This document shows, piece by piece, positions 20,483-43,456 of a stretch of 64,000 nt of DNA. Within the stretch, counting starts at the first letter, position 1. Each line of letters begins with the position of its first letter. A program made the position numbers and the translations under genes. Location: NCBI RefSeq assembly GCF_003334315.1, contig NZ_QOWR01000018.1. One strand, given 5' to 3'. The notes beneath the pieces were generated by a model. It was not told the DNA's origin, did no database searches, and was given only the letters and a program-made list of their open reading frames with translations. Origin of the DNA: Escherichia coli (GTDB taxonomy: Bacteria; Pseudomonadota; Gammaproteobacteria; Enterobacterales; Enterobacteriaceae).

Positions 20483-21778
20483 TTAATTTTTCATTGCTTC
20501 GTTATGGGGCATGGTTGGGGCAAACTCGCTTAACTGTGTATTTAACAAAGCTACCTGTGCATTATTGTTTTCAGACATCCATTTTCCGTATACCTGAAAT
20601 ACCATTTGCGCATCTGCATGGCCCATCTGGTTTGCTATAAATGCCGGGTTAGCACCAGCTGTCAGCGACCAGCAGGCATAAGTATGTCTCGACTGATATG
20701 ATTTTCGATGGCGGAGTCCGGCACGTTTTATCGCTGCGTCCCACATCTGCCTTATTGAGTCAACGGTAAAATGGTCACCATAATTTTTTACTCTCGCTGA
20801 CACTTCAGGTTGAAAAACAAAGGTGCATTTTTGTTTTTCTGTTCTGCCATACTCTCTGAGGTGAACATCAATGATATGCTCTTTGCTCAGTCTCGTTAAT
20901 GTCATCTGGCTCCGGAGAGCGTCGATTGCTGGCTTAATAAGATGAATGACCCGATTGGTTCCCGCCTGTGTTTTTGGTACCGTGAAACGGTCTTTTGCTA
21001 AATTTCTCCTGATCATCATTGTTCCATTTTTCAGATCTATGTCCTCCCATCCAAGTGCACACAGCTCACCAGGGCGAACGCCAGTATAAACAGAAACACA
21101 CCATAAATTTTTTGCTTGCTGATTTCTGCACGCATCGATAAGACGGATAAATTCCTCCCGCGAAAGAGGATCCGGAATGGTTCTTGATTCCTTTAATGGC
21201 GAGATCCCCTTAAGCGGATTATCTGGCAGGTAACCGTTATCAACACCAAACTGGAACACGGCGTTAAGATTTGTCATGTAATTATTTACAGTTACAGCCG
21301 ATCGCCCTGGTTGTGTAACAATATAGTTACTTTTGGGGATCTGGTATCCAGTCAGTAGCTCTTTACGAACCTCCAGTAATTTTTCTTTATTAATCGATGA
21401 GGCAAGATTTTTTTCACCGATTATGCTCAGGATATTTTTGATGACGGCACGGTATGTGTTGAGTGATGTTTTGGCGACTTCAGTTTCTTTCAGTGCCAGA
21501 AATTTTTCAGCCAGTTCTTTTATGGTTAAATCTTGTCGGGCCTCACCAAATTTTTCCAGATTGCGTGAGGAGGGAAACTGTTTTGCATAGTCGAAAACAC
21601 CAGTTTTTATTGCGTAACAAACAGAGGAGCGTAGTTCACCTGCAACGCGCCTGTTTTTTGCTGTGTCAGGAACCCCCAGATTTTCCCTGACTCTTACGCC
21701 TTTATAAACAAACCAGATACGTAATTTCCCTCCATGGTTTTCCACGCCTGTCGGATATTTCATTTCAACTTCTCTCAT
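20483..21778 (-). CDS. Phage tyrosine integrase (431 aa)
   Basis: C-terminal catalytic region with R...HxxR...Y pattern; located at the prophage edge and transcribed toward the junction. Confidence 0.85.
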   Translation of the reverse strand: MREVEMKYPTGVENHGGKLRIWFVYKGVRVRENLGVPDTAKNRRVAGELRSSVCYAIKTGVFDYAKQFPSSRNLEKFGEARQDLTIKELAEKFLALKETEVAKTSLNTYRAVIKNILSIIGEKNLASSINKEKLLEVRKELLTGYQIPKSNYIVTQPGRSAVTVNNYMTNLNAVFQFGVDNGYLPDNPLKGISPLKESRTIPDPLSREEFIRLIDACRNQQAKNLWCVSVYTGVRPGELCALGWEDIDLKNGTMMIRRNLAKDRFTVPKTQAGTNRVIHLIKPAIDALRSQMTLTRLSKEHIIDVHLREYGRTEKQKCTFVFQPEVSARVKNYGDHFTVDSIRQMWDAAIKRAGLRHRKSYQSRHTYACWSLTAGANPAFIANQMGHADAQMVFQVYGKWMSENNNAQVALLNTQLSEFAPTMPHNEAMKN

Positions 21779-40258: not shown

Positions 40259-40619
40259 TCACCATAACTGCTAACCATTCTGACCATTTCACAAGTGACA
40301 GAGTCAATATCGTATTCTGTCACTGTCAGGCTAATACAGCAATGCAATTCAACTACAGCAATGCCTCGTATTTAGGTGAATTTACAATATCGTCCAGTTC
40401 GGATGCCGGCTGCATTTCTGAAGATAAGGCATTTCGGTTCTCGTATTTTCCCCTCATGCTCGTCAGTCCTGCGCGTAGTAAGAGACAGGACACTCACACT
40501 AATTTGTGTGGGCATGCTGTGATGTCCTTCTGAATTATCCCCATGCCATTATGTAAAGCTCTGTTACAGATGCTCGTCACGGTTGTCAGGCTGTCGGGTC
40601 CTCCCAGTGGGGGGCCCTG

Positions 40620-40660
40620 CCACGGGGCGGGAGCGTCGCGGAAAAAGGCTAGTTTTTGCA
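40620..40660. other. Candidate cos site (cosN-like)
   Basis: GGGCGGGAGCGTCGCGGAAAAAGGC resembles lambda cosN (GGGCGGCGACCTCGCGGGTTTTCGC) and lies upstream of the small terminase gene. Confidence 0.4.
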
Positions 40661-40820
40661 TTTCCATGGTGGCGGCAGCATGTTTGGTAATTTATTGATA
40701 ATTAAAAGTTATTTCTCTTTTCAGCTGTACAATATTTTTTTCTCCCTGTCATTAGACTAGTTTGCAATTAATTGAAATATATAAATAAACCTGATTTTCA
40801 CCTGCCAGATGGAGTTGCTT

Positions 40821-41348
40821 ATGTCAAATGTGAGCGGGATCGGTGATGCTTATTACTGGAGTGTTTTTAAAATCGCCGAGGCCTTTGGGCTTCACCGGGA
40901 CACAGTAAAAAAACGGCTCCTCGCGGCCAACACTCCTGTGGCTGCGACTGTCAGGGGGAACCCCGTTTACGCCCTGCAGCATGTCGGGCCTGCCCTGTTT
41001 AGTGTGAAGCATGAGGCAGCAGACTCTGTTCATGATCCATCCCGTATGGAGCCGAAAGAGAGAAAGGACTGGTACCAGTCGGAAAATGAAAGGATCAAGT
41101 TGGAAAAGGAGCAGCGAAAACTCATCCCCGTTGATGAAGTAGTCATCGTCTATTCGTCCATGAGAAAGGCTGTCGTCCAGGTTCTGGAGACAATTCCGGA
41201 TGTTCTTGAACGCGATTGCGCCCTGACTCCTCAGGCCGTTGGCGTTGTACAGCAGGCCATTGATGACCTGCGATACACTCTTCAGGAAAAATCCTACGAG
41301 GCTTGTGCTGCTGAATTAATTCCTGATGAGGAAGGAGAGAGTCTCTAG
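40821..41348 (+). CDS. Terminase small subunit (Nu1-like)
   Basis: N-terminal HTH-like segment; immediately upstream of the large terminase. Confidence 0.7.
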   Translation: MSNVSGIGDAYYWSVFKIAEAFGLHRDTVKKRLLAANTPVAATVRGNPVYALQHVGPALFSVKHEAADSVHDPSRMEPKERKDWYQSENERIKLEKEQRKLIPVDEVVIVYSSMRKAVVQVLETIPDVLERDCALTPQAVGVVQQAIDDLRYTLQEKSYEACAAELIPDEEGESL

Positions 41349-41356
41349 GAGGAATA

Positions 41357-43456
41357 ATGGGTTTTTCATCAGCCCGAAATTTGGGAAGGGACATATCGGC
41401 AGGATTTTCCCCACCACGTCGCATGCCGATTTCGGAGGCTGTTAAAAAATTCATGCGTGTTCCCAAGGGGGCTGGTAACTCGGTGCCATGGGATCCTGAA
41501 CTGACACCCTACATCATTGAGCCCATGAACTGCCTGGCATCGCGTGAATACGATGCGGTGATTTTTGTTGGTCCTGCGCGAACAGGGAAGACCATTGGTC
41601 TGATCGATGGATGGATTGTCTATACCATCGTTTGCGATCCTTCGGACATGCTCGTTGTGCAGATGACCGAAGATAAGGCCCGCGAGCATTCAAAAAAGCG
41701 CCTCGACAGAACGTTCAGAAGCAGTGCGGCGGTAAAGAAAAGAATGAGTCCACGTCGTAATGACAATAATGTCCATGATAAGACGTTCAGGGATGGCTCG
41801 TTCCTTAAAATTGGTTGGCCCTCGGTCAACATTATGTCGTCGTCGGATTACCGGTTTGTCGCCTTAACCGATTACGACCGTTTTCCGGAGAATATCGACA
41901 GCGAGGGTGATGGTTTCTCCCTGGCCTCAAAACGTACCACCACATTTATGTCCGCCGGGATGACTCTGGTGGAGAGCTCGCCGGGACGTGACATCTGCGA
42001 CAGCAAATGGCGACGTAAGTCGCCTCATGAAGCGCCACCGACGACTGGTATTCTTTCCCTTTACAATCGTGGTGACCGCCGCCGCTGGTACTGGCCATGT
42101 CCGCACTGCGGTGAATATTTTCAGCCAGCCATGGATGCCATGACCGGCTACCGTAATGAACCGGATCCCTTTAAAGCCAGTGAGGCGGCGTATCTACTTT
42201 GCCCGCACTGCAGCGGCATTATCACTGCGGAGAAAAAGCGTGAGCTCAATAGTGCAGGAGTCTGGTTGCGTGAAGGTCAGGTCATTGATTGTAACGGCAA
42301 CGTTTCCGGTGAACCGCGCCGCTCCCGTATCGCCAGTTTCTGGATGGAAGGGCCAGCTGCTGCGTATCAGACCTGGGCGCAACTGGTTTACAAATTACTG
42401 ACTGCAGAACAGGAGTATGAAGCGACAGGAAGTGAAGAAACACTCAGGGCGGTTATCAACACCGACTGGGGATTACCTTATCTTCCCCGCGCCAGCATGG
42501 AGCAACGAAAAAGTGAACTGCTTGAGCAGCGGGCAGAGCCAGTTCCTTCCCGCAGTGTGCCAGATGGCGTTAATTTTCTTGTGGCGACAGTGGATGTGCA
42601 GGCGGGACGTCATCGCCGTTTTGTGGTTCAGGTAACGGGCTATGGCAGCCGTGGCGAACGCTGGATTATTGATCGTTACAACATCACGCAGTCATTGCGC
42701 GGTGACAGCGACGGGGAGAGCCAGCGAATTGATCCGGCCAGCTATCCGGAAGACTGGGATGTCCTGCTGACGGATGTTTTTCATAAAAGCTGGCCGCTGG
42801 CCTCCGATCCTTCTCAACAAATGCGACTGATGGCAATGGCGGTGGACTCCGGCGGTGAAGACGGGGTCACTGATAATGCCTATAAATTCTGGCGTCGTTG
42901 CCGTCGTGATGGCCTTGGTAAACGTATTTACCTGTTTAAGGGCGACAGCATCCGGCGCGCAAAACTGATCACCCGTACATTCCCTGATAACACCGGACGA
43001 ACGGGCCGACGGGCGCAGGCCGCAGGTGATGTGCCGCTCTGGCTTCTTCAGACGGATGCACTGAAAGACCGGGTGAATAACGCGTTATGGCGTGACTCGC
43101 CAGGTCCCGGCTATGTGCATTTCCCTGACTGGCTGGGGAGCTGGTTTTACGACGAACTGACGTATGAAGAGCGGAGCAGTGACGGGAAATGGAGTAAGCC
43201 GGGTCGCGGTGCCAACGAAGCTTTTGACCTGATGGTGTATGCCGAGGCTCTGGTCATTCTGCATGGATACGAAAAGATCCGCTGGCCGGATGCACCGGAG
43301 TGGGCGAGCCGGGAAACCTGGCTGGAGTGTGTCCCGGACAGTACCGAACCGTCATCCTCACCGGAACCGGTATCCACGCCTGTTAAAAAACAAAAACGGA
43401 AGAAAACAGTAACTGACGATGTTAACCCCTGGCTGACTTCCGGAGGATGGTTATGA
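41357..43456 (+). CDS. Terminase large subunit (lambda gpA-like)
   Basis: Walker A VGPARTGKT; 699 aa. Confidence 0.9.
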   Translation: MGFSSARNLGRDISAGFSPPRRMPISEAVKKFMRVPKGAGNSVPWDPELTPYIIEPMNCLASREYDAVIFVGPARTGKTIGLIDGWIVYTIVCDPSDMLVVQMTEDKAREHSKKRLDRTFRSSAAVKKRMSPRRNDNNVHDKTFRDGSFLKIGWPSVNIMSSSDYRFVALTDYDRFPENIDSEGDGFSLASKRTTTFMSAGMTLVESSPGRDICDSKWRRKSPHEAPPTTGILSLYNRGDRRRWYWPCPHCGEYFQPAMDAMTGYRNEPDPFKASEAAYLLCPHCSGIITAEKKRELNSAGVWLREGQVIDCNGNVSGEPRRSRIASFWMEGPAAAYQTWAQLVYKLLTAEQEYEATGSEETLRAVINTDWGLPYLPRASMEQRKSELLEQRAEPVPSRSVPDGVNFLVATVDVQAGRHRRFVVQVTGYGSRGERWIIDRYNITQSLRGDSDGESQRIDPASYPEDWDVLLTDVFHKSWPLASDPSQQMRLMAMAVDSGGEDGVTDNAYKFWRRCRRDGLGKRIYLFKGDSIRRAKLITRTFPDNTGRTGRRAQAAGDVPLWLLQTDALKDRVNNALWRDSPGPGYVHFPDWLGSWFYDELTYEERSSDGKWSKPGRGANEAFDLMVYAEALVILHGYEKIRWPDAPEWASRETWLECVPDSTEPSSSPEPVSTPVKKQKRKKTVTDDVNPWLTSGGWL

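Follow-up and report, generated by a model that had tools for sequence, protein, structure and literature searches.

The window, that is the whole 64,000-nucleotide stretch of Escherichia coli DNA analyzed here, carries a prophage that extends from ~20430 to beyond 60300 and whose morphogenetic ORFs are full length. On the + strand, its genes follow in the order lysozyme, Rz-like gene, cos, terS and terL; lambda has its cos at the same place, flanked by the lysis genes on one side and by terS-terL on the other, and in the same orientation. The small terminase gene terS (40821-41348, + strand) encodes a protein of 175 residues of the DUF1441 family. An alternative ATG is found at 40809; the start at 40821, with GGAG six bases upstream, is used by RefSeq and in phage Tritos, and is more probably the correct one. 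Directly downstream, terL (41357-43456, + strand) encodes a large terminase of 699 residues, a gpA-family protein and the predicted cosN-nicking enzyme. Calculated over 60 nt at a time, the GC fraction is 0.63-0.77 across 40560-40660 and then falls to 0.20-0.32 across 40660-40820, an AT-rich stretch which reaches the small-terminase gene. Within 40560-40680, where the sequence-only reading had placed a GC-rich cosN-like element upstream of the small terminase gene, such an element is indeed present, in the form of the 25-mer GGGCGGGAGCGTCGCGGAAAAAGGC (40625-40649, + strand) in the GC peak. The first G of this motif lies 184 bp from terS if the start at 40809 is used and 196 bp if translation starts at 40821, compared to 190 bp in lambda.

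For a comparison with lambda, the right and left ends of the lambda record were joined and then aligned with the window. The lambda row of the alignment reads ACGGGTCCT-(21 nt)-CG/GGGCGGCGACCT/CGCGG, and the window row GTCGGGTCCT-(20 nt)-CG/GGGCGGGAGCGT/CGCGG, with slashes marking the nicks. All seven positions of cosQ, all nine of ACG/GGGCGG and all five of CGCGG are the same in both, as is the 12-bp stagger; the cohesive ends GGGCGGCGACCT of lambda and GGGCGGGAGCGT of the window differ at bp 7, 8, 9 and 11 only. The resemblance to lambda cosN that had been proposed from composition and position is thus more than one of composition: it holds base for base in cosQ and cosN, in the same position and orientation, and the differences are confined to bp 7-12. 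The cosQ-like heptamer GGGTCCT, the putative packaging-termination signal, is located at 40596-40602 (+ strand) and is the same as the lambda heptamer; it starts 29 nt before the position where the top strand is predicted to be nicked, against 30 nt in lambda, the spacer between cosQ and cosN being 1 nt shorter (20 vs 21 nt). The cosN site itself, CCACG/GGGCGGGAGCGT/CGCGG, occupies 40620-40641 (+ strand; -5 to +17) and can be aligned with cosN of lambda, Gifsy-1, mEp213 and the mEp460-like phages. The top strand is predicted to be nicked at 40624/40625 and the bottom strand at 40636/40637, with CG preceding each nick; this would leave the 12-nt 5' cohesive end GGGCGGGAGCGT (40625-40636, + strand), whose left half is GGGCGG. 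It is known from other lambda-like phages that cosQ is a highly conserved 7-bp site and that the CG at both nick sites is conserved, and the Feiss laboratory describes bp 7-12 of the cohesive end as varying freely; the end of Gifsy-1, as an example, differs from that of lambda at bp 8, 9 and 11 (PMC4669245).

A search of the window with the full lambda cosN 20-mer, allowing up to 3 mismatches, found no match; the 4 positions at which the two differ, all in bp 7-12, exceed this limit. For this reason a pattern that leaves bp 7-12 free, GGGTCCT-N18-24-CGGGGCGG-N6-CGCGG, was used in its place; it has a single match in the 64 kb, at 40596-40641, and none in 100 dinucleotide-preserving shuffles. 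Taken by themselves and allowed at most 1 mismatch, the two cosN halves match once in the window, where 0.07 matches are expected. When 26 window-type cos sequences are compared, the sequence left of cosQ is highly variable and conservation sets in sharply at cosQ; this abrupt start shows where the functional block begins on its left side. A full-text literature search for the end GGGCGGGAGCGT returned unrelated eukaryotic papers only.

The closest relatives of the site belong to phages cdtI and Tritos. In a megablast search of 40300-41400 against a phage collection, the records of cdtI (AB285204/NC_009514) and Tritos (OV696610, linear) have their first base at query position 326, which corresponds to 40625 in the window, where the predicted cohesive end starts. 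These record starts are strong hints of real ends, perhaps set by analogy with lambda; the basis for the record start is not stated in the Tritos paper, which describes Tritos as prophage 3 of E. coli LF82, spontaneously induced, a siphovirus by imaging, and isolated as a plaque (PMC9928086). Of the 235 positions between -35 and +200, 6 distinguish the window from Tritos and 13 distinguish it from cdtI; cosQ, the bases flanking the nicks, the cohesive end, the A5-N6-T5 tract and the IHF core discussed below are free of such differences. The differences from both phages include a T at 40670, which is absent from Tritos and cdtI; the sequence left of cosQ is mosaic and differs as well. Over the cos-terS region, the nucleotide identity to cdtI and Tritos is 98.5-98.8%, and the packaging module as a whole (cos, terS and terL) is of the cdtI/Tritos type, near-identical at 98.5-98.9% of nucleotides and with a TerS that is 100% identical to that of either phage. 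The window is furthermore collinear with Tritos from the integrase (~20430) through cos to the tail gene J, with an identity of 98.9% in the 7.5 kb that follow cos and of 95.8% in the 10.5 kb beyond, and the packaging, head and tail genes are 96-99% identical. Judging from its near-identity to the cos of a plaque-forming phage, the packaging site appears to be intact, as the sequence-only reading had suggested, and its packaging signal is no less complete than in that relative; position 40625 would then be the natural genome start for annotating this prophage. Part of this 1.1-kb region is matched in ~2,200 of 5,426 complete E. coli genomes, and most of it in 624.

The two terminase proteins relate to their lambda counterparts in different ways. 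TerL shows the Pfam domains GpA_ATPase (E 8e-81) and GpA_nuclease (E 2e-86), and aligns with lambda gpA over 627 columns at 24% identity (E 7e-22). The type of the large terminase is known to track the type of DNA end, and the gpA family goes with 5' cohesive ends (PMC12315714). TerS, on the other hand, is assigned by Pfam to DUF1441 (E 2e-44) and to no other family, Phage_Nu1 included, and shows no significant similarity to lambda gpNu1 by BLASTP (E 4.6); a profile-profile comparison with hhalign gave a collinear alignment with a probability of 52%. In the AlphaFold2 model of TerS (mean pLDDT 76, rising to 83-86 over residues 11-60), the N-terminus is predicted to be arranged as beta-alpha-alpha-beta-beta-alpha and would resemble MerR-type winged-helix domains; the best PDB matches of the model in Foldseek, with weak E-values, are MerR-type winged-helix DNA-binding domains and a viral packaging-motor component. 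PDB sequence searches with TerS and TerL returned nothing significant. We thus regard TerS as Nu1-like in its role, while membership in the Nu1 family is unsupported; accordingly, the earlier statement that the element lies about 160-200 bp upstream of Nu1 is right as to the distance and as to the role of the gene, but not as to its family. Since TerS has no demonstrable homology to Nu1, cosB must differ from that of lambda. The DUF1441 family of small terminases also takes in those of mEp460, mEp213/LLS, Gifsy-2, Fels-1, Stx phages and the cyanophage Cr-LKS3; no data on DNA ends were found in the DUF1441 literature.

To the right of cosN, seven DUF1441-type cos sites were compared, anchored at the nick. 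Between cosN and cosB, at the position of lambda I2, the window has the A5-N6-T5 tract AAAAAGGCTAGTTTTT (40642-40657, + strand), within which GGC-N3-TTTT(T) is kept in all seven sites, its fuller form being GG(A/G)AA..GGC...TTTT(T). I2 is required for efficient termination (PMC4669245), and the tract in the window may have an I2-like function. Further to the right, at 40688-40700 (- strand; +64 to +76), lies a predicted IHF site with the consensus TATCAATAAATTA (WATCAANNNNTTR), the counterpart of lambda I1. The consensus has seven perfect matches in the 64 kb, this one among them; at this location, a match with at most 1 mismatch on the same strand is present at +61 to +64 in six of the seven DUF1441-type sites, and it is perfect in the window, in the mEp460-like phages and in a Providencia phage.

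Three elements around this IHF site are candidates for TerS binding. At the position of R3, the element CATGGTGGCGGCAGCATG (40665-40682, + strand; +41 to +58) is a possible first TerS-binding site; at about the same position, relatives have type-specific tracts with a three-base period (CATCATCATCA, CACCACCAC and CAGCAGCAG). The other two are copies of a repeat, TTTTCA(C/G)CTG, which occurs at 40718 and at 40795. Copy 1, TTTTCAGCTGTACAAT (40718-40733, + strand), is a tentative TerS site at the R2 position; it reads TTTTCACCTGTACAAT in most relatives and has TTTTCACCTG in common with copy 2. Copy 2, TTTTCACCTGCCAGAT (40795-40810, + strand), lies just upstream of terS, is tentatively placed at the R1 position, and is kept in the window type, in the island copies described below and in the Providencia phage. 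The window carries two unusual bases in these elements: the T at 40670 in the R3-position element is private to the window among the 26 window-type sequences, and the G at 40724 in repeat copy 1 is a minority base among them. Either of these could weaken TerS binding. A repeat finder run on the cos region reported AT-rich, chance-like repeats only and no clear R-site family, and no convincing R3/R2/R1 triplet was found in the cosB of the window. Compared to lambda, the window cosB lacks the lambda R-site sequences; the IHF site is at +79 in lambda, and the IHF core and the R3-position element of the window are both ~10-15 bp nearer to the nick. In the window, the predicted IHF site lies between the candidate TerS sites, and by analogy with the R3-I1-R2-R1 order of lambda, the +41 element and the repeats at 40718 and 40795 might be TerS sites arranged around an IHF-induced bend.

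The cos sites of other phages show how far these parts can vary. The mEp460-like phages have the same cosQ, the same 20-nt spacing and the same end GGGCGGGAGCGT as the window, while the inferred end of mEp213/LLS is GGGCGGCGCGCT. Both types share the I2-like tract and have an IHF-like site at +62/+63 (PMC12315714), but their cosB diverges from that of the window from ~+34 onwards and their TerS proteins are 41-42% identical to that of the window; they probably represent other packaging specificities. Gifsy-1 of Salmonella has an identical cosQ and the end GGGCGGCAGCGT, one base (bp 7) away from the window end; in contrast to the window, it combines these with lambda/21-like Nu1 and gpA, with a lambda-like I2 and cosB, and with a cosQ spacing of 21 nt. 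Cyanophage Cr-LKS3 is reported to have 5' cohesive ends of 9 nt that start with GGGC, and the two bases flanking the site on each side are those of lambda (PMC9303873); its TerS is 38% identical to that of the window. Gifsy-2, Fels-1, Stx2_95 and the Providencia phage escaped the strict cosQ/cosN pattern; their diverged cosQ-like sequence or altered end length was recognized by eye. In the Stx2a phage Stx2_95 (L012, 731-780), the nick contexts are 10 nt apart (ACG/GGGCGGGCGG/CGCGG), while Gifsy-2 (L009, ~985-1035) has a spacing of 14 nt and a left half that has diverged (ACG/GGTGGCTTCGGGCT/CGCGG); Gifsy-2, Fels-1 and the Providencia phage have GGTACTCC at the position of cosQ. These sequences suggest that, in this clade, the length of the end may vary and the termination signal may be a variant one.

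An exact search of IMG/VR with the cosN 19-mer found at least 120 stretches with the same end as the window. Among the matches listed, the cosQ-cosN segment and its 12-nt end recur unchanged next to at least six types of cosB and terS, which include lambda-type (MEVNKKQLADIF...) and 21-type (MKVNKKKLAEIF...) Nu1 genes. Since one and the same end is joined to at least six cosB/terS types, the mosaic joints must lie at or just to the right of cosN, and cosN is a recombination joint.

Based on the homology to lambda, the position of the site, the families of the two terminases and the record starts of the relatives, we consider it very likely that the stretch from 40596 to ~40810 is the cos of a cdtI/Tritos-type lambdoid prophage at a Qin-like locus, with packaging in the style of lambda. 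The site is, in this sense, already known: it is an ordinary cos of this type of prophage. The proposal of cohesive-end packaging made by the sequence-only reading is supported by the lambda alignment, by the starts of the cdtI and Tritos records and by the gpA family of TerL. The exact nick positions, the binding sites of TerS and IHF and the use of the site by the window prophage are what we infer beyond this. By analogy with lambda, the DUF1441 small terminase would bind to the AT-rich cosB, probably assisted by an IHF-induced bend at 40688-40700, and the bound protein would place the gpA-family large terminase on cosN. The latter would then nick after CG in each strand, 12 bp apart, creating 5' overhangs with the sequence GGGCGGGAGCGT; packaging would proceed rightward into the head genes, and would stop at the next cos of the concatemer on reading cosQ (GGGTCCT) together with cosN.

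Other explanations have to be weighed against this. It is conceivable, if unlikely, that the cos is intact but a relic, in a prophage that makes no virions, so that the site is never cut in the host. The Qin locus in K-12 is a defective prophage, and a sister copy of the prophage in the window (L007, strain 13P460A), which matches the 1.1-kb cos query at 100%, has an IS3 in its Rz-like DUF2514 gene; moreover, the private base at 40670 and the minority base at 40724 both fall into candidate TerS sites. However, the Rz-like DUF2514 gene of the window is uninterrupted (37836-38333), the collinearity with the plaque-forming Tritos from the integrase to J, the full-length morphogenetic ORFs and the identity of 96-99% all argue for a functional phage, and cdtI and Tritos, both functional, also differ mutually at several cosB positions. 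The prophage seems to represent a complete, Tritos-like form of the one found at the Qin locus. How complete the packaging signal is bears on the capacity of this Qin-locus prophage to go on spreading and on its possible mobilization of satellites with the same cos.

A cos that is cut differently, with nicks or an overhang length other than the 12 nt of lambda, is considerably less probable still. Variation of this kind does seem to occur among relatives, as judged by the spacing of nick contexts in Stx2_95 and Gifsy-2 and by the reported 9-nt end of Cr-LKS3, and the cosQ-cosN spacing in the window is 1 nt below that of lambda; yet CG/G and T/CGCGG are exactly 12 nt apart in the window, as they are in lambda, Gifsy-1, mEp213 and Fels-1, and the cdtI and Tritos records start at the very base that is predicted. 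We see hardly any room for the view that the element is not a cos at all, be it a GC-rich stretch arisen by chance, a terminator, a regulatory hairpin, a small ORF or a headful pac site. ORFs of 51 and 57 residues do overlap the site, and the record of phage HannyBb annotates hypothetical proteins over the matched region; in an E. coli genome matching the cos query at 100%, however, PGAP/RefSeq places no CDS at the equivalent stretch, and the conservation that begins abruptly at cosQ among the 26 window-type sequences is without coding periodicity. Scans for terminators, promoters and Rfam families gave no match at the cos site, so that these readings are rejected, and chance is opposed by the failure of any shuffle to reproduce the combined pattern. 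A headful pac site is unlikely, since TerL is not of a headful type but a gpA-family protein, and this family is associated with 5' cos ends (PMC12315714). An ordinary, lambda-style cos of a cdtI/Tritos-type prophage is thus the explanation that we prefer.

Three IMG/VR contigs contain two GGGCGGGAGCGT cos sites each: L057 (at 6242 and 9561), L066 (at 96 and 8231) and L075 (at 8431 and 9836). In each of them, one cos is of the mEp460 type and has its own terS, while the other has a cosB of the window type and no terS; the likeness of this terS-less copy to the window ends ~15 nt into terS. The islands in question have genes for an integrase, a DNA primase and an SSB as well as a repressor-like gene upstream of cos, and a ClpP/capsid fusion gene after it. 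The island copy resembles a PICI-like satellite, or else a rearranged prophage, that makes use of the packaging specificity of the window. That the cos in the window could itself belong to a PICI or satellite, which would have no terminase of its own, is ruled out by the full-length terS and terL directly downstream. We speculate, tentatively and with more doubt than conviction, that the cosB of the window represents an uncharacterized packaging specificity, in which the DUF1441 TerS might read the triplet repeats at +41 to +58, the IHF bend at +64 to +76 and the TTTTCACCTG repeats; the occurrence of a terS-less block from ~-31 to +210 in the integrase-primase-SSB islands of IMG/VR would then suggest satellites that depend on cdtI/Tritos-type terminases.

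Some further features of the prophage deserve mention. Between the ybcW-like ORF and cosQ, ~340 bp (40259-40595) are non-coding; this stretch is 97% identical to phage mEp460_ev081, and is partly common to other phages despite their differing terS genes. Between the lysis genes and cos, a match to the Rfam cspA thermoregulator (RF01766; 38539-38955, + strand; 109.8 bits, E 1.5e-28) spans the leader and coding region of a cspI-type cold-shock gene (ORF 38694-38909). The sister copy carries Qin-type cargo, comprising dicB, ydfD, hokD, rem, ydfU, cspI, ynfN and gnsB. At the other end of the prophage, a perfect IHF consensus, TATCAAATAGTTA (20461-20473, - strand), adjoins the integrase gene (20483-21778) and lies near the start of the similarity to Tritos at 20430; it may be an IHF site in an att arm.
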